A stretch of 64,000 nucleotides of DNA, from the IMG/VR virus record IMGVR_UViG_3300000052_000003; one strand, given 5' to 3'. The notes below the pieces were generated by a model. That model was given only the letters and a program-made list of their open reading frames with translations. It had not been told where the DNA came from and did not search any database. This document shows, piece after piece, positions 540-35,448 of the stretch (positions are counted from its first letter, which is position 1; the number at the start of each line of letters is the position of its first letter). The DNA is from a virus. The position numbers and the translations under genes are program-made.

Positions 540-1106
540 ATGAAAAATTTAATCAGTAAATTCGCCAGTGTTAATGTCGGTCTTGAGATCAATATCGAAA
601 GATGTGTCGCTTTGGGCCGTAATTTAAGAGCAAAAAGCGCCTATGCTAAACCACTTTTCAATTATAGATTTAGCAGTGTTGAACAAATGGAAGCTTGGCT
701 TGAAAAAGAATTAAATCGTAAATTAGCGATCCAAGCCTACCAGGATGAAAGAAAAGCAGAGAAGAAAAGAGCGCTTGAAAATAATCCTTTCCAGGTTGGA
801 GATCTTGTCTACGATAGCTGGGGATACGAGCAAACTAACATTGACTTCTACCAGGTGATCGAAGTTAAAAACAAAAGCGTAATGATCCAGCCGATCCAGG
901 GCAAAATGGTTCCAAGCCAAGGATATAGTAGCATGGCCGGTTTAACTGCTCCAGTTGCTAATAGTTTCTGTGGGGAGCCAATCAGAAAGAATGTGAACGC
1001 CTGGGTAAGTGGCGGAAATCCTAGCTACTATTTAAGAAGTGAGCACGGGATCATCAATCTTTACAATAAAGGAGACGAAGGAGTTTATTGCAGTTGGTAT
1101 GCTTAA
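540..1106 (+). CDS. Hypothetical early protein (188 aa; SWGYEQTNIDFYQV motif)
   Basis: Long ORF with ACATCTAA leader; stop overlaps the HD gene start (ATGCTTAA). Confidence 0.8.
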   Translation: MKNLISKFASVNVGLEINIERCVALGRNLRAKSAYAKPLFNYRFSSVEQMEAWLEKELNRKLAIQAYQDERKAEKKRALENNPFQVGDLVYDSWGYEQTNIDFYQVIEVKNKSVMIQPIQGKMVPSQGYSSMAGLTAPVANSFCGEPIRKNVNAWVSGGNPSYYLRSEHGIINLYNKGDEGVYCSWYA

Positions 1107-1617
1107 AAATAAAAATATAGAAAGTCAATTAATTAAGGAAGCCAGGGAACTGGCTTTCTGTTATCACGCCGATCAGATGTATGGATCACGTCCTTACTCT
1201 TATCACTTGCAAAAGGTAGTCAATATAGCTAGATTTTATTCTAGTTTGATCCCTAAGGAAGATCTTGAAGACGTCATTTGTGCCGCTTATTTGCACGATA
1301 TCCTCGAAGATACCCTATGCACCCAGGATGAAATTTTAAGAGCCTTAAATCCAAGGATTTTGTTGTTGGTTAAACTGCTGACAAAAAACGGATCAGATCC
1401 AGAAAGCTATTTTAACCAGGTAGCCCAGGATGATCTGGCGATCTTTATCAAATTATGCGATAGATATGCGAATGTTTTAGCGTGTGTTTACGATGGCGAA
1501 GATAAGAAGCTTGCTAAATATAAAAAGCAGAACCCTTATTTAATTAGGATTCTGCTTAATAAAAATTATATCGAATTAATGGAAGGAATCGAAGGATTAC
1601 TTCTTGCTTTTGATTAG
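1099..1617 (+). CDS. HD-domain small alarmone hydrolase (Mesh1/SAH/Aph1-like (p)ppNpp hydrolase)
   Basis: Motifs H..Q.Y...PYSYH, AAYLHDILEDT, IKLCDRYAN typical of RelA/SpoT HD hydrolases; ATG 1099 preferred over GTG 1039. Confidence 0.85.
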   Translation: MLKNKNIESQLIKEARELAFCYHADQMYGSRPYSYHLQKVVNIARFYSSLIPKEDLEDVICAAYLHDILEDTLCTQDEILRALNPRILLLVKLLTKNGSDPESYFNQVAQDDLAIFIKLCDRYANVLACVYDGEDKKLAKYKKQNPYLIRILLNKNYIELMEGIEGLLLAFD

Positions 1618-1838
1618 TAGGCTAAATACTCCGACTCGCTAATCTCTTTGCCTCCTTGATAGATCGCTTCGATCGCTAAGTCGGTGTTGAATGCCAAAGG
1701 GAATTCTTCGCCGGCTTTTCTTTTTGCAATCAGGCTCGGATTTTCTGGAAGACTTTTAATTACCAGATCTTCGCTTTCTAAAAGCAAATAAACTGGCACG
1801 CTATTTAAGCGCTCTACTAAATTCATCAAGTCACTCAT
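1614..1838 (-). CDS. Small acidic protein (74 aa), candidate immunity/antitoxin
   Basis: Immediately downstream of the protease-synthetase gene on the same strand; role inferred from position. Confidence 0.6.
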   Translation of the reverse strand: MSDLMNLVERLNSVPVYLLLESEDLVIKSLPENPSLIAKRKAGEEFPLAFNTDLAIEAIYQGGKEISESEYLAY

Positions 1839-1861
1839 ATTTACAATATATAAAATTTTAT

Positions 1862-3160
1862 TTAGAAACCAAAATTTTTGTAGTAATTTATTGACTGAGA
1901 TTTTAGCTCCTCAATCCTCTTTACATTTCCTACGGTTGGACGTTCAGCATTTAGGACTCTGATCTCTTCGTATAGCTTATGACCTTGGCCCCCAGGTAAA
2001 CCGGTTCTTTGTGCGATCTCATTATATTTCTGATCTCCTAATACTGCTCTAGCGCTTCCTTCTTTTTCTTTAGCGTATATCATCGCTGGAGTGTTGATCT
2101 GCATTTCTGCCATCGTACCGTTTTCAGTCTTGAAATTTACGATCGTTCCAGAATAGCCGAAGAATTGATCGCCTTCCTGAACCTTAATTCTACCGCCATT
2201 CTCAGCGCTGAATCTAGGATCAGATTTTGCCAGATCTCTGGCTGATCCGATCTTGTCTCGATCTATTACGACGGTGTTTCTGACTGCATCTTTTATCGCG
2301 TCTACCTTTCCACCTTCTTCGTCGTTTACCTTTCTTAAAATACTATCTTCAGATTTTAAGTTGATCGGAGTCACTACGCCTCCCAGTTTTTCAGCATAAC
2401 CTTTGCCTACTTTGTCCACTTCGCCAGACGAAGCTTTAGCGCCTGCCATTAAACTAGAAACTCTCGGATCTCCTGGTTTTACGATTGCCACTTTTGGCAT
2501 CCTACCAGCTCCCTTTGATTCTTTATCGGATCCTCCTTCTGGACGTCTACCACTACCAGGACCACCGAAATCTATTGCCTCCAGTATTACTGAAATTTCA
2601 GACCAAAGTTTTTGTTCTTTAGTCATCTCTCCAGGTTGCTTTTTGTAATTGAACATACCTTCGACGCTAAAGCCTTTAAATTCTCCAGACTTAACCTTCG
2701 TCCAGACGTCATCATTATCGATCGAATAAGAGGCAAAAGCGGAGCCGTCGGGAGCATCCTCAAAACCTTTCATAGGTTTGATTCCTCTCGACTCATCTGT
2801 GATCCAGATTTCAAACATCGTCACACCTTCGACCACCTGGTTAGGATCGTGCATCAAATTGACGTTTGAAGTGTATCCCTTCTGGAACATTTTTTTAACG
2901 ATCTTGTAAATCGTGTCTTTAGGGAAGGAGACAAAGTACTCCTGGCCATTATCGTTTCGATAGATCGGTGTATCTGCCAGCATAATAGGACCAGAGATGA
3001 TTCGACGCTCTTCGTCTTGGATCTCAAAATTCAATCGATCTGCTTTGAAGCGTAGGAAGTTTCTCTCGATCGCTGGCTTGTCTACCAAAGCGACGAAATC
3101 CACTTCTGATCCATCCATTAGATCCTCATTAATTTCTAGCAAGTAAATAGGTAAATTCAT
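1862..3160 (-). CDS. Prohead protease (XkdF-like) fused to C-terminal RelA/SpoT-type (Apk/Tas1-like) alarmone synthetase domain
   Basis: N-term NLMHD and GFSVEG protease motifs; GGPGSGR linker (aa199-205); C-term KSEDSILRKV, DAVRNT, GYSG, EMQINT, HKLYEEIR. Confidence 0.85.
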   Translation of the reverse strand: MNLPIYLLEINEDLMDGSEVDFVALVDKPAIERNFLRFKADRLNFEIQDEERRIISGPIMLADTPIYRNDNGQEYFVSFPKDTIYKIVKKMFQKGYTSNVNLMHDPNQVVEGVTMFEIWITDESRGIKPMKGFEDAPDGSAFASYSIDNDDVWTKVKSGEFKGFSVEGMFNYKKQPGEMTKEQKLWSEISVILEAIDFGGPGSGRRPEGGSDKESKGAGRMPKVAIVKPGDPRVSSLMAGAKASSGEVDKVGKGYAEKLGGVVTPINLKSEDSILRKVNDEEGGKVDAIKDAVRNTVVIDRDKIGSARDLAKSDPRFSAENGGRIKVQEGDQFFGYSGTIVNFKTENGTMAEMQINTPAMIYAKEKEGSARAVLGDQKYNEIAQRTGLPGGQGHKLYEEIRVLNAERPTVGNVKRIEELKSQSINYYKNFGF

Positions 3161-3171
3161 TCTTTTTTTAT

Positions 3172-5046
3172 TTAAAATCTTGAAGCTTTCTCGATACGCT
3201 CAATTCTTTTCTGCGATCCAGTGATGTCGCTTTCTACTACATAAGCCCTAGTCACTACGTTTGAAATAGTATTTAGTGATGTTTGATCCAATGTAGTTGC
3301 AATAGGCTCCGCTGATCTAGGTGCAATCGGAGCGCCAGCTCCTGCACTTGGTCCAGATCCTAGACTAGGAGCTGATCCTCCACCCGACTGACCAGGCACT
3401 TGGACAGATAAGATATTTTGAATTGACTTATATCCAGAAGCTAAAGCAAGTCCAGCGTTGATCGGGGCTAGCACTGGTCCGACAATAGGAATACCAATCG
3501 TAGACTCGTATGCTTTCTGAGCTGATAAGATCGCGGAGATAGTAGCACTGGCTACCGCTGCCGCCTTTCCTGCTGCCGTCTCCTGGCCTAAAAGATTCGA
3601 AAGACTTGCTAGTGTGTCAGCGGTTGCTTGAGCCGCTACAATCTTAGCCTTCTTCTCCTCGTCTGCTAGTTTTTTTCTTGCATCAGTTTGCGCCTTTAGA
3701 TTTTTAGTCTCAAGCTCTTCTCCTTTTTTAATTACTTGGACCGTCTCCTCAGTGGTAGCAGAAAGTTGCTCAAGTGCTAACTGATCATATTTTTGTTGGA
3801 TTGCTAAAAGCTCCTCATTCTTAGCCTCCTCAATTACTGCCTCATCACCTCCAAATTTAATTCGGTCCTCAAGTTGCTTTGTGTATTTAGCTTGGACTGC
3901 TTCTTCTTCTTTTTGTTGATCACTCAGGAATTTATCAGCGTTTCTGTTTCTTAATTCCTCATCTTCAGAAGCTATTCGATCCTGATTCTTTTTAAGCTCT
4001 TTAGCGGCCTCCTCAGCTCTTTTCTTTTCCTCCTCTTTACGTTTGTTCTCTTCTGCTATTTGCTTGTCTCTAGCCTCTTTGTTTTGCTTTGCTACTTCCT
4101 CATTCCTTTTATTATTTGCATCTACTACCGACTTATTATACTTAGTATCAATTACTACTAATTCGGTTTTTAGATCACGAAATTTTTTAGCCTCTTCGTC
4201 TGATAACTTGCCAGTCGCTTTTAGTTTTTCGCGTAATACATTTAAGTCAGTATTTACAATTTCCTTGCGCTTATCAGATAGAGCCTTTTCGCTGGCTCCT
4301 GCCGCTTCCATAACTTTAAGCTCAGCCTCTAGGCTTTCTTTTTTTCTTACGGATGATTTAGTGAATTTCTCTAAAGATCGTTCTGCTTCGTTTGTAATCC
4401 CTACAAAGTCAGTCACTTTTTCAACAATTCCAGTGAATATCTTACCTACGTCAGCAAGTCCAGGAATAACTTTAAGCACTGCTTCCTTAATCGCGTCAAA
4501 GTTTGCCACAATTAAACCCAAGGCAATCGCAAAAGCACCCACACCAGTGGCTATCAAAGCTCCTCTAATGGTAGTAAATGCCGTAATCGCTGCCGCTTTC
4601 ATCGAAGCAAAAGCGCTTAATACGTTAGTCTTAATTACAAGCGCTAAGTTTTTAAAGCCATCTATCGATGATAAGACCGTATTAAGTCCTTCAGATAACG
4701 CCAGGGCTCCCTGAACTTTTAAGAGTTGCTTCTCTACCTCAGCAGATTCTACTCCGACAAGGGCAAGAGCTCCCTGAGTTGCAGCGAACGCCCCAGCTAC
4801 GCCCTGGATCGATTGTCCGAATGCCTTGAATTTAGCATCTGGATCAAAAGCTTCGATAGTCGCCTTAGCATCACCAATCCGGTCTTTAAGTTCGGCCGCT
4901 CTTTTGGCAGCGTTAGCAATCTCAGCAGCGGAGGCTCCAGCAGAATTCTGGAGTTTTACTAATTCCATCATCGCCTCTCGAAGTTGCCCTCTAAGACTCC
5001 TGGTATCAGCTACTAGATTTATTCCTACGGTTTCGTTTACTGCCAT
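3172..5046 (-). CDS. Tail tape measure protein (624 aa)
   Basis: Long Ala-rich helical protein with hydrophobic segments and a charged coiled-coil stretch. Confidence 0.85.
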   Translation of the reverse strand: MAVNETVGINLVADTRSLRGQLREAMMELVKLQNSAGASAAEIANAAKRAAELKDRIGDAKATIEAFDPDAKFKAFGQSIQGVAGAFAATQGALALVGVESAEVEKQLLKVQGALALSEGLNTVLSSIDGFKNLALVIKTNVLSAFASMKAAAITAFTTIRGALIATGVGAFAIALGLIVANFDAIKEAVLKVIPGLADVGKIFTGIVEKVTDFVGITNEAERSLEKFTKSSVRKKESLEAELKVMEAAGASEKALSDKRKEIVNTDLNVLREKLKATGKLSDEEAKKFRDLKTELVVIDTKYNKSVVDANNKRNEEVAKQNKEARDKQIAEENKRKEEEKKRAEEAAKELKKNQDRIASEDEELRNRNADKFLSDQQKEEEAVQAKYTKQLEDRIKFGGDEAVIEEAKNEELLAIQQKYDQLALEQLSATTEETVQVIKKGEELETKNLKAQTDARKKLADEEKKAKIVAAQATADTLASLSNLLGQETAAGKAAAVASATISAILSAQKAYESTIGIPIVGPVLAPINAGLALASGYKSIQNILSVQVPGQSGGGSAPSLGSGPSAGAGAPIAPRSAEPIATTLDQTSLNTISNVVTRAYVVESDITGSQKRIERIEKASRF

Positions 5047-10985: not shown

Positions 10986-11424
10986 AGCTTATGATTACTT
11001 CTTGTTTCTCTTCGTTCTTAGCTCTATCCGTCCATCCTAAGAGATTCTTAGCGTAGAAAATACCCTTTCCTTCATTGGCCACAATATCAGCCGCTAGAGC
11101 TCGAAACATTTCATCGATCTCTTTGACTTCTTTGTGTAGTGGATGATCAGAATTGCCCAGTACATTATACCAATTCGATCGCTTGTAAAATTGAGCGCCT
11201 TGTCTTGGTAGCCAGATCAGTAAAAAGTAGCTGATCGTAGGCAAGTGACGCTCACGAATGATCCGAACACCGGCCCCGGTTGCTACTTCCTTCGTGGAAT
11301 CTAGGCAATAATCAATATATTTATTTGCCCACTCCAGGATCAGGTCAGCTTCTCTGATTTTTTCGACTGGCTTCTTGTTGCTTACTGGTTTTTTCTCTTT
11401 CATTTTTTGAATAATAAGGTCCAA
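10960..11424 (-). CDS. terS: Terminase small subunit (P22 gp3-like)
   Basis: Directly upstream of TerL; PTIS and C-terminal IFYAKNLLGWTD motifs. Confidence 0.75.
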   Translation of the reverse strand: MDLIIQKMKEKKPVSNKKPVEKIREADLILEWANKYIDYCLDSTKEVATGAGVRIIRERHLPTISYFLLIWLPRQGAQFYKRSNWYNVLGNSDHPLHKEVKEIDEMFRALAADIVANEGKGIFYAKNLLGWTDRAKNEEKQEVIISFANEDHTS

Positions 11425-11936
11425 TCAGTCGGTAAGGTTAAGCGCTTTTCTAAGTTATAACCATATTCTGCCATAAATTCGATCCACTGATCTGTCGATT
11501 TTATGTTAATATGCCCCCACCAGGCGTCAAATTCTTCAGTCGTAGTGTAAGGAGTCGAAGAAAGTAGTAGGTATTTAGCCTCAATACTCTCTAAATAGTC
11601 ATTAATCTGTTCGTCTGTTAGATGTTCAAACACCTCAATGCTCACAATTAGATCACATCGGTTTGGATAATTCTTAAGTCCGTGCAATAATTGCCCCCTC
11701 TTTTTAGCAAAAGCCCGATGATATCTATTAGGCTCGATCCCGTAATAGTTTATTTTTAACTTAGACAAGCATTCTCCCAAGGTTCCCATTCCTGCCCCGA
11801 TCTCGATAACGCTCTTAGGATCGTATTGTTCGATGATGTTGGCAGTTTCCATCATTAAGTTCCAATAATCCGGATTATGTGGGGAAACTCCGATTTTAAT
11901 CTCGTAATCAAAAAACTCTTTAGGCGTTGCTTGCAT
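11400..11936 (-). CDS. Class I SAM-dependent methyltransferase
   Basis: VIEIGAGMG motif I, YGIEP, SIEVFEHL. Confidence 0.85.
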   Translation of the reverse strand: MQATPKEFFDYEIKIGVSPHNPDYWNLMMETANIIEQYDPKSVIEIGAGMGTLGECLSKLKINYYGIEPNRYHRAFAKKRGQLLHGLKNYPNRCDLIVSIEVFEHLTDEQINDYLESIEAKYLLLSSTPYTTTEEFDAWWGHINIKSTDQWIEFMAEYGYNLEKRLTLPTDWTLLFKK

Positions 11937-12351
11937 TATCTATCTGGTCTAATTTTCTAATCGCCCATTCTATCCCCTCGGTGCCTCCCCAGGCGTCCCA
12001 CATCAAGCCTCCACACCCTTCGCCATAAGCGACGTCTTTATTTTGTTGATGTCTTTTAAAGCTCGCCATTCTTGCGATCGTGTCTCTCGAAATGTCTTCT
12101 TTGTTTGCCAGCTGGTTAGCACGAATTTTTCCTACTGGAGTACCACATGATCCCCAGCCATTTTTCTCAGCATAATCAAGCGCTCGCTTAGCGTTATTAG
12201 TCGCAGCCTCTGGATAGTCATTGTAAGATTCAGCAAAAGCACCACCGGCTAGAATTGCCTGGTAGACTTCGATTGCCTTCTCCTCGGTATCGTAGATGCA
12301 AGCACCCGATCCGATTCTGTATTTTCCATTATTGCATTTAATGACTGGCAT
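11920..12351 (-). CDS. Conserved-looking phage protein of unknown function (143 aa)
   Basis: DYPEAATNNAKRAL...CGTPVG...GCGGLMWDAWGG; coupled to neighbouring genes. Confidence 0.7.
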   Translation of the reverse strand: MPVIKCNNGKYRIGSGACIYDTEEKAIEVYQAILAGGAFAESYNDYPEAATNNAKRALDYAEKNGWGSCGTPVGKIRANQLANKEDISRDTIARMASFKRHQQNKDVAYGEGCGGLMWDAWGGTEGIEWAIRKLDQIDNASNA

Positions 12352-12355
12352 AATT

Positions 12356-13378
12356 TTACTCGATTAGTTTGGAGTAAGTAGCAAATCGGGCCTCGTTAAT
12401 TTTAAAGATGTCGTAATGTTCGCGGACATATTCCCCATTTGCCTTACCATAGTCCTCTCGCATCTGCTTGCTAAATGCCATTCGTTTGATATCCCTCTCC
12501 CAGTTATCCACTTCGAAGATCGTTGGAATATCATCATAAGGAGCTCGCTTGTAGGTTAAGATCGGGATGTTTTTCGCTCCTGCCTCCAGGGCTTTAAGGT
12601 TTGACTTTAGACGGTTAAATTTATTATCTAGCAAAGGAACCAGAAGCATGTCAGCCTCCAGGTAGAAATTCATGTATAGATCCACCGGCATCGATTCAAG
12701 TATCTTGTATTCAAGCTTCTCGTTTGCCGTGTAGATATCGCCTATCTGCTTCCAGTGCCATTCGTTAAAATTATTCCATCCACATAAAAGCATTCTAGCG
12801 TTATCTCTAAATACCTTAGACTTCGCCAGCTCTGCAATAGGTTGCTTCAGTTGCTGGATGTCTGGATAGTGAGTGATCGATCCAGTGTGTGCGATTGTGA
12901 CTTTCTCATTTTCCTTTCTTACATCTGTGAACTGATCCTTATCGAATGGCAATGCGTTTGGCAGGATCTCGCAGTTTTTATTTATTTGGATTATTTCTAA
13001 ATAAAGTCTATTGTGAGTCGTTGTAACTAGGTCCGCGTGTTTGATGTAGTCACGAATAATCCTAGTGATCCCTAACTTGCGATAAGTGCCAGCGCTTAGG
13101 TGCTTATCAAATAGAATCCAATAGTCATCGATATCGATCACCAATTTAAATCCAAACTTCTGGCGCCACTCCAGGAGCTGAAGCAAAGGCACCGATTCCA
13201 GGAACCGATTTACCACTACGACGTTAAAGTTTTTATCCTTCAATAGCTCCTCTGTGATCGTGTCAGTTATCAGGCAGTATTCCTTCTCCATGATCGACAA
13301 AGGAAGCGCCAGTCTGTGATAGGTTACTCCGCTATTTTGACTTCCTACCGCGAGGATTCTTAGCTTGGATTTTGTCAT
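12356..13378 (-). CDS. GT-B (GT4-like) glycosyltransferase
   Basis: SGVTYHR, DIDD, and PLLDNKFNRLKSNLKALEAG donor-binding motif. Confidence 0.85.
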   Translation of the reverse strand: MTKSKLRILAVGSQNSGVTYHRLALPLSIMEKEYCLITDTITEELLKDKNFNVVVVNRFLESVPLLQLLEWRQKFGFKLVIDIDDYWILFDKHLSAGTYRKLGITRIIRDYIKHADLVTTTHNRLYLEIIQINKNCEILPNALPFDKDQFTDVRKENEKVTIAHTGSITHYPDIQQLKQPIAELAKSKVFRDNARMLLCGWNNFNEWHWKQIGDIYTANEKLEYKILESMPVDLYMNFYLEADMLLVPLLDNKFNRLKSNLKALEAGAKNIPILTYKRAPYDDIPTIFEVDNWERDIKRMAFSKQMREDYGKANGEYVREHYDIFKINEARFATYSKLIE

Positions 13379-27571: not shown

Positions 27572-29545
27572 TTAGTCTTTTTTTATTACCACTTGAGAAG
27601 CCCAGACGTGACGGCAAGAAGGAGAGTGTTCTCCGTCTGGCATTGTCCACCAGCCACCGCGACGATCAAATACTGAATAACCTAGGCGCAAGCTGATCGC
27701 TTCGATTTCTGCTCTGGTGTATAGCTTATCTAATTGCATCAAGCGCGCACAGAATTGTCTGCTTGGATGCGCTGCTGAGTTTCTCTGTCCTGCTGGTATC
27801 GATGATCTCCACTCGTAAGAATAACGGACCATAAAGCTACGCGTCGATGGCTTGGTGTCAGTGATCTCAGATAGGGGAGATGTTAAAATTCTCTCGACGT
27901 TTCCCCTTACATTTGTGGACTTGATCAAACCGCGCTCCTCTAAGGAGTCCATGATTTTATTTATGATCCCTAGATCCGTTTTGATCGTCCCAGCTATAAT
28001 CTCAGGAGTGATTCTTTTGTCCTTCTGGATGAGATCCAATACATTCGCCTCTAGACGCGTTAATTCTTGCGTAGCAAAGTCTAAATTCATCGCCTCCTCT
28101 AAGTCATTAGGCAAAGCAGAGAACGTGTCTCTAGTGCGAAATATGGAGTAATTACTTTTAGACTCTCCGAACTGATCAAATATCGAGATTACATCATCTT
28201 CGCTGAATCGTAAATTAGTAGAAGCTGGAGCTCCTTCTAATTCAGATCCACCTTGCTCAGCTATTAAGCCTACCAAAGCGCGGACCTCATTTGGAGTCAT
28301 TGACTCAAGTACTTTATTTGCTACTAATGGCGATAAGCTATTGATTGCATCGATCACATCCTGAGAAGTTCCAGAAGTTTTCGGTTCTAATTTAGGAGCT
28401 CCAAGTTTTTCGCGGATCTCGTCTTTAGTTAAGTTCTGCGCGATCGTAGTTTCAGAGAACTCCATACCAATCGGCTCGACTGGAATTATTTGTAGCCCAT
28501 TGATAGCACCGCGTAATTTGGCAAGTAAACTGAATACTTGTTCTTGATATATTTGCTTATCATTTACATAAGTGTTTTTAAATATCTCGTAAGAATCGCG
28601 CATTTGCTGGCGTGATCCTAATTGCCCAGGTGTAGCAATACCGAATAAATCTGGAGACGTGATCTGGTGACCAGCGTACACGTTTTTCTCAATGATTTTA
28701 TCTACGTTTGCGAAATCCTCCTTTGTAATATCAGAAGCTCCTAGATCCTCAATGATTGGCTTTCTAGAAGCATCGTTCACAAAGGAAAGAATGAACTTTT
28801 TTCCGTCGGATCCTGAGAAACGATCTGTAAATTTACGCTCTACTATTCTCTTCTCTTCATCTTGAGGCTCACCGTTAGGAAGAGTGATCAATTTTGAAGC
28901 ACTAAATCCGGTCTGAGCATTGCCTAAAACGTGCTTAGAAACCTCGATATCTGACTCGATATAGTTTAAAGCACCAATATAACCAGGTAAAGAGTAAGCC
29001 GAAAGGTTAGGACGGTACTCTTTTAGATACAAAATCTGGGTTCCTTGAGGCAATTTGTCGTTAAAAGCGTTGTAAATAGAGCGCTTATACTTACTATCTT
29101 GCCAGTTTTCAGAGTACCAGAACTGGGTATTATCGTCATTTGTCCGGACCTTAGTATAGTCTAAGTGATAAATCTCCGAAACTTGACCAGCTATCTGGCT
29201 CCAGATTACTTGAAGATAAGCACCTCCAAACAATTCGACGTCAGTAGATACTTTTTTTAAGATATCATTTAATGATTCGAAAGGGTTTGGCTTCTCAATA
29301 AACTCCTGAGCGATCTGATCGTTTTCATCTACTGGTTTAAAGCCATTACCAGTGATATAATTTACCTTGCTTTTAATAATCGCGTTATGCTTAGCTGATT
29401 TAGTAAACAAATCGACCAAGTAATTAGGGTAGTCGTTCTTTTTTCCGAACTCAATATATCCGCCGTTCTCTCCTTTTTTCTCAGAGTATTCTGGCTGCCT
29501 TGCTTCAGCAAAGGTAAGGACATTTAAAAAGTTTGTATTGCTCAT
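27572..29545 (-). CDS. Portal protein with C-terminal winged-helix and MuF-like extensions
   Basis: Portal-like core (HNAIIKSK..YITGNG, GHQITSP.LFGI); C-terminal SRQFC and CRHVW motifs. Confidence 0.85.
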   Translation of the reverse strand: MSNTNFLNVLTFAEARQPEYSEKKGENGGYIEFGKKNDYPNYLVDLFTKSAKHNAIIKSKVNYITGNGFKPVDENDQIAQEFIEKPNPFESLNDILKKVSTDVELFGGAYLQVIWSQIAGQVSEIYHLDYTKVRTNDDNTQFWYSENWQDSKYKRSIYNAFNDKLPQGTQILYLKEYRPNLSAYSLPGYIGALNYIESDIEVSKHVLGNAQTGFSASKLITLPNGEPQDEEKRIVERKFTDRFSGSDGKKFILSFVNDASRKPIIEDLGASDITKEDFANVDKIIEKNVYAGHQITSPDLFGIATPGQLGSRQQMRDSYEIFKNTYVNDKQIYQEQVFSLLAKLRGAINGLQIIPVEPIGMEFSETTIAQNLTKDEIREKLGAPKLEPKTSGTSQDVIDAINSLSPLVANKVLESMTPNEVRALVGLIAEQGGSELEGAPASTNLRFSEDDVISIFDQFGESKSNYSIFRTRDTFSALPNDLEEAMNLDFATQELTRLEANVLDLIQKDKRITPEIIAGTIKTDLGIINKIMDSLEERGLIKSTNVRGNVERILTSPLSEITDTKPSTRSFMVRYSYEWRSSIPAGQRNSAAHPSRQFCARLMQLDKLYTRAEIEAISLRLGYSVFDRRGGWWTMPDGEHSPSCRHVWASQVVIKKD

Positions 29546-30605: not shown

Positions 30606-31568
30606 TTAAGCTAAGATAAAATCAACCATCTCAGCAGGGAAAGCGATCTGAACGCCAGCCTTGAACTCAGCTACGAAACGAACTTGATCCGCTTCTTTAG
30701 CGAAGAACAATTCGAAACGCTCTTGCTCATCTAATAAGTCAGTTCCAAAGAACATGTTAGAAACGCGACCACCGTAGATCTTAGAAGTACCGTTCAAACC
30801 TTGAACTGCTACTACTTTTACCGTAGTACCTGGAAGCATTAACTCAGAATCTGCCTTGCCATCAAAATTGTAAGCGAATAAGTTCGCGTTCTTTAATGCG
30901 ATTGTGTAAGTACGGAATACATCCATTCCTACGAAGATAGTCACATCATCCTTAGCTACGATCTCAGCAGGTAAAGCCTTGTAAACTGCGTCGATTACGT
31001 TGATCACGTTTGAAGTAGTGATACCAGCTGAAGCAGCTAATGGAGTACCGTAAAAAGTAGTCGTGTTAGCGTGGATTACTGAAGCAGAAGCAGCAGCTAC
31101 TAACTTAGCGAAACCGTCGAACTTGTTTAAGTTTCCGTTTGCTGAAGCAGTGTCTCCTTGCCAAGAAGCGATCTCTAATTGAGCAGCGATCTTGTCAGCC
31201 TTACGTTGTGAGTACTCAGCAGCGAATACGATTGAATCGTAAGAAGAACCAGCAGGTAAAGCCTTCTGTAAATACTTAGATTCTAAATCTTTCGGGCAAA
31301 GTTCCTCGTTTACCTTAATCTTTCCTACCGTTAAAGTACGTTGTGTGAAAGTAGTTGTACCTGAAGCGTTGAAACCGCAAGATGAACCATCTTGGAAGAA
31401 CGCGTCAGTGTCCATGATATTAACCGTTTCAGCAGACTTAACGCCTAACATCACGTTTCCTTGATCCTTGATCAAAGAGATTGTTTTTGCACCTAATACA
31501 GATGAAGCTACTAATTGGGTAGCGTTCTCTTCTGTATAGTTAGCTAATGAAGATACTACAAATGCCAT
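30606..31568 (-). CDS. Major capsid protein
   Basis: 320 aa after scaffold; HK97-type layout (ADKIAAQLE..WQGD, FDG), highly biased codon use. Confidence 0.9.
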   Translation of the reverse strand: MAFVVSSLANYTEENATQLVASSVLGAKTISLIKDQGNVMLGVKSAETVNIMDTDAFFQDGSSCGFNASGTTTFTQRTLTVGKIKVNEELCPKDLESKYLQKALPAGSSYDSIVFAAEYSQRKADKIAAQLEIASWQGDTASANGNLNKFDGFAKLVAAASASVIHANTTTFYGTPLAASAGITTSNVINVIDAVYKALPAEIVAKDDVTIFVGMDVFRTYTIALKNANLFAYNFDGKADSELMLPGTTVKVVAVQGLNGTSKIYGGRVSNMFFGTDLLDEQERFELFFAKEADQVRFVAEFKAGVQIAFPAEMVDFILA

Positions 31569-31588: not shown

Positions 31589-32182
31589 TTATTTTAAATT
31601 TTTTACTTTGTTTAAAAATCTCTCGATTTTCTCGTCTCTTTTCTCAGATTGAGAGAAAGAATTTTTTGGTGCCTGGATAGGACTAGCGCCTGGAGTTGAA
31701 GCTAAACCTAAAACTACGTCAGATAGATCATTGATCGCTTGAGAGAATTTACCCTCGATAGATGCGATCTTAGCTTTTAAAGCTTCGTTCTCTGCCTTTA
31801 AGTTTTCGATAGTGCCATCAATTACCTGGAACTTATCTTCTTCCATTGGAATTTCTTCCTCTGGCATTTCAATCGGCTCCATTTCTGCCTGAGGTGTCTC
31901 AATGCCTTCAATTTTGCCCCCTACGGTTGTGACCATAGTACCGTCTACTAGCTCATGCTCGCCATCTGGAGCAGGATAAGTATTGCCGCTTTCATCCACT
32001 AGCATCGCTTCAGCTCCAATCTCTAAACCGCTTAATTCAATCTTAGATCCGTCTTTAAGATCATAAGTTTCAAAAGCTAATTCTGCGACTGGTGCCTCTG
32101 GTTCGCTAGTCTCTACTTGATCGACCTCAAATTCTGAAGCCAGCATCAAGCGGATTTTTTCGATTCCTTCTTTTACCGTCAT
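31589..32182 (-). CDS. Capsid scaffolding protein
   Basis: Very acidic, APDGEHEL.DG motif, C-terminal coiled coil; directly upstream of the capsid gene. Confidence 0.8.
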   Translation of the reverse strand: MTVKEGIEKIRLMLASEFEVDQVETSEPEAPVAELAFETYDLKDGSKIELSGLEIGAEAMLVDESGNTYPAPDGEHELVDGTMVTTVGGKIEGIETPQAEMEPIEMPEEEIPMEEDKFQVIDGTIENLKAENEALKAKIASIEGKFSQAINDLSDVVLGLASTPGASPIQAPKNSFSQSEKRDEKIERFLNKVKNLK

Positions 32183-32242: not shown

Positions 32243-32307
32243 TAGAAAAAAAAGTTTAAAAAAGTTTTTTATTATCAATTACTTTTGTATCTTTGATATG
32301 TAGTCAG
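32243..32307 (+). promoter_or_regulatory. Early promoter P1 (A/T box-TATCAA-N9-TATCTTTG-N4-GTAGTCAG), divergent from the scaffold gene
   Basis: Near-identical to P2; its 3' part also appears at 1-19. Confidence 0.8.
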
Positions 32308-32827: not shown

Positions 32828-33394
32828 ATGAAAAATTTAATCAGTAAATTCGCCAGTGTTAATGTCGGTCTTGAGATCAATATCGAAAGATGTGTCGCTT
32901 TGGGCCGTAATTTAAGAGCAAAAAGCGCCTATGCTAAACCACTTTTCAATTATAGATTTAGCAGTGTTGAACAAATGGAAGCTTGGCTTGAAAAAGAATT
33001 AAATCGTAAATTAGCGATCCAAGCCTACCAGGATGAAAGAAAAGCAGAGAAGAAAAGAGCGCTTGAAAATAATCCTTTCCAGGTTGGAGATCTTGTCTAC
33101 GATAGCTGGGGATACGAGCAAACTAACATTGACTTCTACCAGGTGATCGAAGTTAAAAACAAAAGCGTAATGATCCAGCCGATCCAGGGCAAAATGGTTC
33201 CAAGCCAAGGATATAGTAGCATGGCCGGTTTAACTGCTCCAGTTGCTAATAGTTTCTGTGGGGAGCCAATCAGAAAGAATGTGAACGCCTGGGTAAGTGG
33301 CGGAAATCCTAGCTACTATTTAAGAAGTGAGCACGGGATCATCAATCTTTACAATAAAGGAGACGAAGGAGTTTATTGCAGTTGGTATGCTTAA
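32828..33394 (+). CDS. Hypothetical early protein (188 aa), copy 2
   Basis: Copy of 540-1106. Confidence 0.8.
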   Translation: MKNLISKFASVNVGLEINIERCVALGRNLRAKSAYAKPLFNYRFSSVEQMEAWLEKELNRKLAIQAYQDERKAEKKRALENNPFQVGDLVYDSWGYEQTNIDFYQVIEVKNKSVMIQPIQGKMVPSQGYSSMAGLTAPVANSFCGEPIRKNVNAWVSGGNPSYYLRSEHGIINLYNKGDEGVYCSWYA

Positions 33395-33905
33395 AAATAA
33401 AAATATAGAAAGTCAATTAATTAAGGAAGCCAGGGAACTGGCTTTCTGTTATCACGCCGATCAGATGTATGGATCACGTCCTTACTCTTATCACTTGCAA
33501 AAGGTAGTCAATATAGCTAGATTTTATTCTAGTTTGATCCCTAAGGAAGATCTTGAAGACGTCATTTGTGCCGCTTATTTGCACGATATCCTCGAAGATA
33601 CCCTATGCACCCAGGATGAAATTTTAAGAGCCTTAAATCCAAGGATTTTGTTGTTGGTTAAACTGCTGACAAAAAACGGATCAGATCCAGAAAGCTATTT
33701 TAACCAGGTAGCCCAGGATGATCTGGCGATCTTTATCAAATTATGCGATAGATATGCGAATGTTTTAGCGTGTGTTTACGATGGCGAAGATAAGAAGCTT
33801 GCTAAATATAAAAAGCAGAACCCTTATTTAATTAGGATTCTGCTTAATAAAAATTATATCGAATTAATGGAAGGAATCGAAGGATTACTTCTTGCTTTTG
33901 ATTAG
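33387..33905 (+). CDS. HD-domain alarmone hydrolase, copy 2
   Basis: Copy of 1099-1617. Confidence 0.85.
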   Translation: MLKNKNIESQLIKEARELAFCYHADQMYGSRPYSYHLQKVVNIARFYSSLIPKEDLEDVICAAYLHDILEDTLCTQDEILRALNPRILLLVKLLTKNGSDPESYFNQVAQDDLAIFIKLCDRYANVLACVYDGEDKKLAKYKKQNPYLIRILLNKNYIELMEGIEGLLLAFD

Positions 33906-34126
33906 TAGGCTAAATACTCCGACTCGCTAATCTCTTTGCCTCCTTGATAGATCGCTTCGATCGCTAAGTCGGTGTTGAATGCCAAAGGGAATTCTTCGCC
34001 GGCTTTTCTTTTTGCAATCAGGCTCGGATTTTCTGGAAGACTTTTAATTACCAGATCTTCGCTTTCTAAAAGCAAATAAACTGGCACGCTATTTAAGCGC
34101 TCTACTAAATTCATCAAGTCACTCAT
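33902..34126 (-). CDS. Candidate immunity protein, copy 2
   Basis: Copy of 1614-1838. Confidence 0.6.
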   Translation of the reverse strand: MSDLMNLVERLNSVPVYLLLESEDLVIKSLPENPSLIAKRKAGEEFPLAFNTDLAIEAIYQGGKEISESEYLAY

Positions 34127-34149
34127 ATTTACAATATATAAAATTTTAT

Positions 34150-35448
34150 TTAGAAACCAAAATTTTTGTAGTAATTTATTGACTGAGATTTTAGCTCCTC
34201 AATCCTCTTTACATTTCCTACGGTTGGACGTTCAGCATTTAGGACTCTGATCTCTTCGTATAGCTTATGACCTTGGCCCCCAGGTAAACCGGTTCTTTGT
34301 GCGATCTCATTATATTTCTGATCTCCTAATACTGCTCTAGCGCTTCCTTCTTTTTCTTTAGCGTATATCATCGCTGGAGTGTTGATCTGCATTTCTGCCA
34401 TCGTACCGTTTTCAGTCTTGAAATTTACGATCGTTCCAGAATAGCCGAAGAATTGATCGCCTTCCTGAACCTTAATTCTACCGCCATTCTCAGCGCTGAA
34501 TCTAGGATCAGATTTTGCCAGATCTCTGGCTGATCCGATCTTGTCTCGATCTATTACGACGGTGTTTCTGACTGCATCTTTTATCGCGTCTACCTTTCCA
34601 CCTTCTTCGTCGTTTACCTTTCTTAAAATACTATCTTCAGATTTTAAGTTGATCGGAGTCACTACGCCTCCCAGTTTTTCAGCATAACCTTTGCCTACTT
34701 TGTCCACTTCGCCAGACGAAGCTTTAGCGCCTGCCATTAAACTAGAAACTCTCGGATCTCCTGGTTTTACGATTGCCACTTTTGGCATCCTACCAGCTCC
34801 CTTTGATTCTTTATCGGATCCTCCTTCTGGACGTCTACCACTACCAGGACCACCGAAATCTATTGCCTCCAGTATTACTGAAATTTCAGACCAAAGTTTT
34901 TGTTCTTTAGTCATCTCTCCAGGTTGCTTTTTGTAATTGAACATACCTTCGACGCTAAAGCCTTTAAATTCTCCAGACTTAACCTTCGTCCAGACGTCAT
35001 CATTATCGATCGAATAAGAGGCAAAAGCGGAGCCGTCGGGAGCATCCTCAAAACCTTTCATAGGTTTGATTCCTCTCGACTCATCTGTGATCCAGATTTC
35101 AAACATCGTCACACCTTCGACCACCTGGTTAGGATCGTGCATCAAATTGACGTTTGAAGTGTATCCCTTCTGGAACATTTTTTTAACGATCTTGTAAATC
35201 GTGTCTTTAGGGAAGGAGACAAAGTACTCCTGGCCATTATCGTTTCGATAGATCGGTGTATCTGCCAGCATAATAGGACCAGAGATGATTCGACGCTCTT
35301 CGTCTTGGATCTCAAAATTCAATCGATCTGCTTTGAAGCGTAGGAAGTTTCTCTCGATCGCTGGCTTGTCTACCAAAGCGACGAAATCCACTTCTGATCC
35401 ATCCATTAGATCCTCATTAATTTCTAGCAAGTAAATAGGTAAATTCAT
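34150..35448 (-). CDS. Prohead protease-alarmone synthetase fusion, copy 2
   Basis: Copy of 1862-3160. Confidence 0.85.
   Translation of the reverse strand: MNLPIYLLEINEDLMDGSEVDFVALVDKPAIERNFLRFKADRLNFEIQDEERRIISGPIMLADTPIYRNDNGQEYFVSFPKDTIYKIVKKMFQKGYTSNVNLMHDPNQVVEGVTMFEIWITDESRGIKPMKGFEDAPDGSAFASYSIDNDDVWTKVKSGEFKGFSVEGMFNYKKQPGEMTKEQKLWSEISVILEAIDFGGPGSGRRPEGGSDKESKGAGRMPKVAIVKPGDPRVSSLMAGAKASSGEVDKVGKGYAEKLGGVVTPINLKSEDSILRKVNDEEGGKVDAIKDAVRNTVVIDRDKIGSARDLAKSDPRFSAENGGRIKVQEGDQFFGYSGTIVNFKTENGTMAEMQINTPAMIYAKEKEGSARAVLGDQKYNEIAQRTGLPGGQGHKLYEEIRVLNAERPTVGNVKRIEELKSQSINYYKNFGF

Follow-up and report, generated by a model that had tools for sequence, protein, structure and literature searches.

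We describe a phage toxin locus in which an alarmone synthetase domain is fused to a putative capsid-maturation protease. The locus lies in a stretch of viral DNA of 64,000 nucleotides (IMG/VR virus record IMGVR_UViG_3300000052_000003; "the window" denotes this whole stretch) and encodes a 432-residue fusion protein with an XkdF-type N-terminal domain and a C-terminal domain similar to the toxin Tas1, a 74-residue predicted immunity protein, and a predicted alarmone hydrolase of the HD family. With a conserved carrier, a conserved junction, swappable toxin domains and matching neighbour genes all present, the fusion is assigned from sequence comparison to a family of polymorphic toxins that has a prohead protease as its carrier. 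Confidence in what the individual parts are is high. The overall proposal, namely a polymorphic toxin-immunity system on a capsid-maturation protease, including loading, release, injection and antidote timing, is considered somewhat probable, and the packaging and injection of the toxin are put forward tentatively, as close to evenly balanced.

Apk2-IapK(Tis1-like)-Aph1 modules of MuF polymorphic toxins have been reported in (pro)phages (Ahmad et al., 2023, PMC10083569; Paulet et al., 2025, PMC12226406; Jamet et al., 2017, PMC5576092), so that the module itself is already known. By experiment, the Apk2 toxin domains make (p)ppApp and are toxic, Aph1 hydrolyses the product, Tis1 and IapK block the acceptor site, and the protections given by Tis1/IapK and by Aph1 are additive (PMC10083569, PMC12226406). 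An initial annotation of the window had invoked these proteins as the model for the locus, and its account of Apk2, IapK and Aph1 agrees with both papers.

The elements of the locus, each with its basis in brackets, are:

1862-3160, minus strand: 432-residue fusion gene, XkdF-type prohead protease domain, Gly-rich linker and Tas1-like alarmone synthetase toxin domain (open reading frame, ORF; homologue clusters)
2561-3160, minus strand: XkdF/Peptidase_S78_2 protease domain, residues 1-200, with putative catalytic His104 and Ser165 (Pfam, conservation, fold)
2531-2566, minus strand: conserved junction motif GGPGSGRRPEGG, residues 199-210, between carrier and toxin (recurs across relatives)
1865-2488, minus strand: predicted Tas1/Apk-type RelA/SpoT homologue (RSH) synthetase toxin domain, residues 225-432 (profile, AlphaFold2 model, Foldseek)
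1614-1838, minus strand: predicted 74-residue immunity gene of the Tis1/IapK family, 23 nt downstream of the toxin gene (family alignment, Pfam Tis1_ImmP in members)
1099-1617, plus strand: predicted RSH-type HD small alarmone hydrolase of 172 residues, its gene converging on those of the toxin and the immunity protein (Pfam HD, PHROG 990, PDB)
33387-35448, no strand assigned: second identical copy of the whole locus (same ORFs listed; duplication of the 32,288-bp unit)

All three ORFs of the initial annotation, the 432-residue fusion, the 74-residue ORF 23 nt downstream and the HD ORF on the opposite strand, were recovered at these positions. The likely start of the HD ORF is the ATG at 1099, giving 172 residues, and it ends at 1617, where its TAG stop overlaps the stop codon of the 74-residue gene, so that the two genes converge. 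Window bases 1-31712 are 100% identical to 32289-64000, a genome of 32,288 bp thus being written almost twice, probably from a circular or terminally redundant viral contig. The second copy at 33387-35448 is a consequence of this doubling, and there is therefore one locus, not two.

Toxin domain, antidotes and carrier

The C-terminal half of the fusion, which the initial annotation had read as a RelA/SpoT-type synthetase, is closest to the toxin domain of Tas1, a (p)ppApp-synthesising type VI effector of Pseudomonas aeruginosa (PDB 6OX6). As a single sequence, residues 235-410 matched this domain (6OX6_A) with E 1.2e-31, and a profile of the 27-member family returned Tas1, residues 249-432, with E 3.9e-48 as the sole PDB match at E 0.01 or better. 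Of the profile and structure searches that had been proposed for this half, those for Tas1 and for a nucleotidyltransferase fold were positive, whereas Pfam RelA_SpoT gave E 0.049 and remained under threshold; the family assignment therefore rests on Tas1.

The AlphaFold2 model of the toxin domain has a predicted local distance difference test (pLDDT) score of 96. With this model Foldseek ranked Tas1 first (E 1e-15, template modelling (TM) scores 0.77/0.82, 35% identity), followed at about ten orders of magnitude weaker by the exported synthetase SaEAS, SAS1/2, RelP, CapRel and FaRel2. Furthermore, the synthetase motif residues (K..S..RK, D..R, GY.G, E.Q, H..Y) align with those of Tas1 and are invariant across the 27 family members; we infer that they correspond to syn1-5. 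Taken together, the sequence and model data identify the C-terminal half as a Tas1/Apk-type RSH synthetase domain with a Pol-beta-like nucleotidyltransferase fold, predicted to be active and toxic.

The 74-residue protein, proposed earlier as a candidate immunity gene, is conserved in close relatives (74-96% identity) and aligns with ORFs of 70-72 residues located downstream of distant fusions, with 11 invariant columns over the eight members. Two of these eight match Pfam Tis1_ImmP (PF24154, best E 1.3e-6), and the top PDB match of the family profile is Tis1 (6OX6_B), aligned end to end over residues 7-71 at a marginal E of 0.063. The ORF is accordingly placed, by transitive membership, in the Tis1/IapK immunity family. 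In addition, the predicted complex of the toxin domain with the 74-residue protein gave an interaction prediction score from aligned errors (ipSAE) of 0.87 in three runs, against 0.00 for the best of three controls, with at least 94% of contacts common to the runs and a partner pLDDT of at least 91. In calibration, 58 of 80 solved complexes attained the ipSAE mark, as did 2 of 110 mismatched pairs; these rates apply only roughly here, given the custom alignments used. As the Tas1-Tis1 complex (6OX6) has already been solved, the result shows likeness to that pair and is no proof of binding. From homology and the predicted complex, the 74-residue protein is predicted to block the synthetase by binding it, in agreement with its proposed immunity function.

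The HD ORF matches Pfam HD (E 8.6e-6), the phosphohydrolase family PHROG 990 (E 1.7e-34) and, in the PDB, RSH hydrolases and small alarmone hydrolases of solved structure. The profile of its family returned the small alarmone hydrolase entries 6YVC and 6Z3N at around 3e-15, Mesh1 and the RelSeq hydrolase domain at around 1e-6, and Aph1 (7SMG) end to end at 3.9e-6. Residues typical of RSH hydrolases (His23, His36, His66-Asp67, Glu70-Asp71 and Asp121-Arg122..Asn125) are invariant in the family. These matches uphold the earlier reading of the ORF as an alarmone hydrolase and place it, by sequence, among the RSH-type small alarmone hydrolases, not especially close to Aph1; breakdown of the toxin's product is predicted.

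The N-terminal half had been described as a head-maturation protease, and the evidence agrees. Residues 45-169 match Pfam Peptidase_S78_2/XkdF with E 2.3e-11 and 44.2 bits, against a gathering cut-off of 24, and of 151 homologues all (100%) retain His104 and 99% retain Ser165. The AlphaFold2 model of the domain (pLDDT 89), submitted to an exhaustive VIA structural search, placed gp21 of phage T4 (5JBL) first with Z 8.3 and a root-mean-square deviation of 2.8 Å over 116 residues. The next rows were the assemblins of varicella-zoster virus (Z 4.8) and human cytomegalovirus (Z 3.8), and unrelated rows lay at about Z 3.5 or below. A PDB sequence search with the domain returned no relative, and Foldseek with its model gave only noise (TM about 0.12). 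In a comparison with MuF domains, only the C-terminal third of the MuF-type PHROG 7625 matched; true MuF-type loci matched this PHROG over its whole length. On sequence and model evidence the carrier is thus a prohead-protease-type domain with an assemblin/T4 gp21-like fold and not MuF, and is regarded as a putative protease.

The head context of this domain was examined in an exhaustive search with residues 1-200, which collected 3,902 representative proteins. Among the best 150 of these, 85 are stand-alone and 64 bear a C-terminal extension, which in 54 of the 64 belongs to one family, homologous to a separate 197-residue gene of the window (E down to 3e-15). A scaffold-like domain therefore fills the toxin's position in most other extended XkdF homologues. 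On the circular map the fusion gene is followed by the rest of the cassette and the three-gene plus-strand cluster, then by the 197-residue scaffold-like gene and a 320-residue capsid-like gene; the 197-residue gene is the next one on the minus strand past the cassette, with the major-capsid-like gene directly downstream of it. Phages of this group have the cassette between the protease and the scaffold-like gene.

As a separate observation, some XkdF homologues (relatives P0102, P0109, P0144, P0164 and P0119) are enlarged by insertions of about 100-250 residues that separate the first 40 residues from the domain core, and P0119 contains an internal duplication.

Linkage of the three genes and exchange of toxin domains

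An IMG/VR scan for the toxin domain yielded 46 XkdF-type loci, three of them cut at a contig end. In each of the 46 the Tas1-like toxin is followed by a Tis1-like gene, and an HD gene converges on the pair from the other strand. The same arrangement was found in five diverged metagenomic lineages, in the order fusion, ORF of about 72 residues, convergent HD gene and ORF of about 190 residues. Full-length homologues of the fusion occur in more than 100 metagenome clusters at 46-93% identity, mostly on contigs of 32-36 kb. On this comparative evidence, the toxin, the Tis1-like gene and the HD gene are judged to travel as a unit.

The next group of IMG/VR loci matched MuF-type 'head morphogenesis' and Bxa-like PHROGs end to end and is identified by sequence as classical Apk2; in these MuF-type loci the HD gene is co-directional and follows the Tis1-like immunity gene. 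Three further viral Tas1-like proteins are of different build. The 965-residue protein at L062:2906-5800 has a MuF-type N-terminal half, the toxin domain in mid-protein and an additional C-terminal DUF3626. Those at L064:3074-4579 and L092:3143-4603 are Tas1-like proteins whose N-terminal regions match no PHROG or Pfam family and may represent further carriers.

The initial annotation had suggested a survey of XkdF-like proteases for variable C-terminal domains, and such variation was found. Sister phages encode proteins of 483-485 residues that share the N-terminal domain (61% identity over residues 1-223) and the GGPGSGRxPEGG linker and have a Zeta_toxin (E 1.2e-24) as C-terminal domain. After the same linker, a third C-terminal domain occurs in the relative P0142; it matched no family, and neither did the C-terminal domains of P0226, P0256 and P0260. 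Most of the family has the junction, either as GGPGSGRxPEGG or with one or two residues changed, and the window's version, GGPGSGRRPEGG, is a candidate recombination joint, cleavage site or both.

In the Zeta-type genomes the Tis1-like and HD genes are both absent, with the gene of about 190 residues and the head genes kept. The occurrence of the HD gene in all 46 Tas1-type loci and its lack in Zeta-type loci lend indirect support to a predicted role in hydrolysing (p)ppApp and protecting against the toxin. We also weighed an HD protein acting on its own in counter-defence but discarded this reading, since its gene vanishes together with the synthetase in these variants. The site of the window's Tis1-like and HD genes is occupied there by a 57-residue ORF (L001:9815-9988, minus strand; L002:11449-11622) on the opposite strand, overlapping the end of the toxin gene. 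This ORF matched no family and is a candidate antidote to the Zeta domain.

Chitinophagaceae/Bacteroidetes contigs of metagenome-assembled genomes (MAGs) carry related toxin genes. An orphan cassette there, at L010:896-2268 and also in L009, L011 and L012, consists of a short helix, the phage linker GGPGSGRHPEGG, a Tas1-like domain and an in-frame Tis1-like domain. L010 encodes a second, free-standing Tis1-like gene besides, and the neighbouring genes look cellular (an AAA ATPase and a 567-residue repeat-rich protein with an N-terminal hydrophobic stretch). Such cassettes could reflect host capture of phage toxin-immunity DNA, or could be mis-binned phage remnants.

Genome, host and neighbouring genes

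The genome encodes a large terminase, DnaB helicase, replication initiator, lysozyme, portal, methyl- and glycosyltransferases and a metallophosphoesterase. All of its ORFs of at least 250 residues were scanned and no integrase was found among them, which argues that the phage is probably virulent. Megablast with 25 kb of the window gave no match among GenBank phages. Tblastn with the fusion gave only half-length matches, the C-terminal half to a human-gut phage record and the N-terminal half to Nonlabens phages; the latter, infecting Flavobacteriia, are the nearest isolates for the N-terminal domain. No Shine-Dalgarno sequence precedes the 74-residue gene. The host is likely a freshwater member of the Bacteroidota, and the phage a small, uncultured one.

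The other genes considered around the locus are:

540-1106, plus strand: 188-residue gene upstream of the HD gene, same strand (only match PHROG 37844, unknown function)
31589-32182, minus strand: 197-residue scaffold-like gene (homology to the C-terminal extension of XkdF homologues)
30606-31568, minus strand: 320-residue major-capsid-like gene (PHROG 11320 and the virion structural protein PHROG 1623)

The plus strand holds only three genes (49-336, 540-1106 and 1099-1617), all others being on the minus strand. A homologue of the 188-residue gene (40-44% identity) is kept in both Tas1-type and Zeta-type relatives, and the gene probably lies outside the toxin cassette. For the 320-residue capsid-like gene, the orthologue in L006 has a faint SU10_MCP match.

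A sigma-70 promoter scan found fewer sites than in shuffled controls, and the frequency of the Bacteroidetes-type two-box pattern was not above chance. A Bacteroidetes-type -7 box (TAnnTTTG, here TACTTTTG) is located at 32281-32288, about 49 nt upstream of the first plus-strand gene and within the 154-nt gap between the plus-strand cluster and the divergent head-gene operon. It is a single motif match, and would fit transcription of the HD cluster as a unit of its own.

Directly upstream of the fusion gene, a 624-residue gene (3172-5046, minus strand) is rich in coiled coil and has weak tape-measure-like PHROG matches. Its N-terminal part is conserved in relatives, and its product could be an internal or ejected virion protein. 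Genes for a methyltransferase (178 residues) and a glycosyltransferase-like protein (340 residues, PHROG 7162) at 11400-13378, minus strand, adjoin the terminase and may act in DNA or surface modification.

The initial annotation had also described a toxin-free MuF-like domain fused to the portal. This assignment was rejected as unsupported, since the C-terminal half of the portal gave no Phage_Mu_F match at E 0.01 or even at E 10, and in the Atlas winged-helix clusters came first, with a MuF cluster only at rank 28 (score 0.76). Portal residues 330-657 (window 27572-28558) form a C-terminal extension of about 330 residues with weak winged-helix (HTH_24/MarR) signals, and the nearest Atlas clusters of the extension are viral proteins, either free-standing or portal-fused.

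Proposed mechanism, alternatives and known systems

In the mechanism that we propose, the protease domain would carry the toxin into the procapsid, in place of the fused scaffold-like domain of most extended XkdF homologues. Cleavage in or close to the linker would release the toxin, which would reach the next cell along with the ejected DNA; its conversion of ATP/ADP to (p)ppApp there would deplete ATP and stall the metabolism and defences of the host. The phage-made Tis1-like protein and the hydrolase would then switch the injected toxin off and, late in infection, the same two antidotes would shield the producing cell from newly made toxin until lysis. The carrier being a protease of the capsid interior, a concrete and testable route of loading and release is suggested.

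Several points weigh against this mechanism. Capsid loading, cleavage and injection, like an early timing of HD expression and the nature of the nucleotide product, are elements that we infer, and the virion steps count on this side. Prohead proteases, such as those of HK97 and T4, usually digest themselves and leave the capsid, and retention of the released cargo is therefore not guaranteed. An injected, ATP-draining toxin moreover looks costly for a phage that is probably virulent, unless it is quickly neutralised. The 74-residue protein, taken alone, has no Pfam match, and the HD hydrolase shows greater sequence similarity to generic small alarmone hydrolases than it does to Aph1. With respect to the product, a 'GxN' at syn3 is the signature assigned by Paulet et al. 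to adenosine-specific enzymes, the residues being insufficient to set specificity (PMC12226406). This position reads G-V-N in Tas1, G-T-I in the window protein and G-N-I in the family consensus, and the family has an invariant Asn four residues after the syn3 Gly. Some Apk1 homologues make (p)ppGpp, and some make (p)ppGpp only. With the syn3 position reading G-T-I and such homologues in existence, the product is not certain.

These same observations, an Apk syn3 signature that is not conserved, the Apk1 homologues restricted to (p)ppGpp and a partner hydrolase nearest the generic enzymes, would all fit an enzyme other than a (p)ppApp synthetase. Its product could be (p)ppGpp or both alarmones, or it could, as FaRel2 and CapRel do, pyrophosphorylate the CCA ends of tRNA. 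We nevertheless consider such an activity unlikely, at roughly the level of a serious minority view. At E 0.01 or better, Tas1 is the one solved sequence that the family profile recognises, the fold search separates Tas1 by some ten orders of magnitude from CapRel, FaRel2 and SAS1/2, and an antidote of the Tis1 type pairs with the (p)ppApp makers Tas1 and Apk2. Judged by sequence, (p)ppApp is the most likely product.

The fusion might also act inside the producing cell only, as a late shut-off or ATP-draining device tuned by its antidotes and never packaged, the fusion gene then being the landing site of a mobile cassette that gains late expression. The cassette does sit exactly at the junction of protease and scaffold, as an insertion would, and the phage is apparently virulent. 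An intracellular toxin, however, needs no covalent tie to a capsid-interior enzyme; the joining of at least three unrelated C-terminal domains to one carrier through one linker is a hallmark of delivery-domain polymorphic toxins, and the MuF-borne versions of the same toxins likewise sit on head proteins. An action confined to the producing cell is thus rated improbable, somewhat more so than a different nucleotide product. Less probable again, in our view, is a use of the module as a weapon or recognition system between competing phages, or between lysogen-like carriers and hosts, which would abort infection where the antidotes are lacking and spare kin phages or hosts with captured immunity. 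That sister phages differ in toxin type, each with antidotes of its own, and that orphan cassettes, made up of the phage linker, a Tas1-like domain and either one or two Tis1-like genes, occur on Chitinophagaceae MAG contigs would suit such a system, although these contigs may be mis-binned phage or defective remnants. As it too needs packaging and injection of the toxin, this explanation overlaps with delivery from the virion as proposed above.

Delivery of a carrier-borne toxin, controlled by two antidotes, remains our preferred explanation. In its widest form it would make XkdF-type prohead proteases a second, mechanistically distinct polymorphic-toxin carrier after MuF, self-loading, cutting at GGPGSGRxPEGG and injecting from the virion, in apparently virulent freshwater Bacteroidota phages whose hosts capture orphan cassettes as protection; we regard this full version as possible, with more doubt than belief.

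No protease-borne version was found in the searchable literature, which leaves subscription-only papers outside and includes a 2025 survey of 1,369 Apk1 homologues, and the statement of the initial annotation that none had been described is in line with this result. The carriers listed in that survey are Sec, WXG/LXG, XopAD, SPP1/MuF, DUF4157 and Rhs/PAAR, a protease not being among them. New here are the carrier, the convergent hydrolase gene, the apparently virulent genome and the use of a second head protein, one that has a junction motif of its own, to bear toxins. At least twice, then, this repertoire of toxins, alarmone synthetase and Zeta toxin alike, has been mounted on head proteins, and members of the present family are frequent in viral metagenomes, with over 100 protein clusters and 46 IMG/VR loci.

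The closest known system is the MuF Apk2 module, which likewise has three parts, with a Tas1-like C-terminal domain on a head protein, a Tis1-family gene immediately downstream and an HD hydrolase beside it. In both cases the carrier also bears other toxins, Zeta toxin included. The two differ in that the carrier here is an XkdF-type prohead protease, that in 46 of 46 XkdF-type loci the HD gene lies on the other strand and converges, but follows the immunity gene co-directionally in MuF-type loci, and that the hydrolase here resembles generic small alarmone hydrolases more than it does Aph1. Moreover, MuF toxins have been described as tied to temperate phages, whereas the genomes here are of about 32-36 kb with no integrase found. 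For MuF toxins themselves, packaging, injection and the benefit to the phage were left as an open question (discussion in PMC10083569).

Among homologues of solved structure, the Tas1(Apk1)-Tis1 pair of the Pseudomonas aeruginosa type VI secretion system (6OX6) comes nearest to the toxin domain (35% identity, TM about 0.8) and, by a weak match, to the 74-residue protein. Unlike the toxin here, Tas1 is mounted on a PAAR carrier of the secretion system and is without a hydrolase partner, being a bacterial weapon and not a phage one.

In T4, the internal proteins and Alt enter the prohead by means of a capsid-targeting sequence, are cut by gp21 and are injected with the DNA. The present system would resemble these in placing cargo in the prohead core together with a protease of assemblin fold (here a gp21-like fold) and in its ejection, processing and injection being conjectural in our case. 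The cargo here is covalently fused to the protease, whereas that of T4 bears a short targeting peptide; the T4 internal proteins and Alt have been cited as a precedent (PMC5512222).

Finally, in the present system as in FaRel-ATfaRel, a toxic alarmone synthetase is paired with a hydrolase for its product. FaRel-ATfaRel modules, of the toxic small alarmone synthetase (toxSAS) type, were reportedly described by Jimmy et al. in 2020 (cited in PMC10083569) and are said to employ a small alarmone hydrolase as antitoxin. Unlike the module described here, FaRel-ATfaRel is a cytoplasmic two-gene toxin-antitoxin system with no carrier, and its synthetase belongs to another subfamily, with only weak fold matches to the toxin domain of the window.

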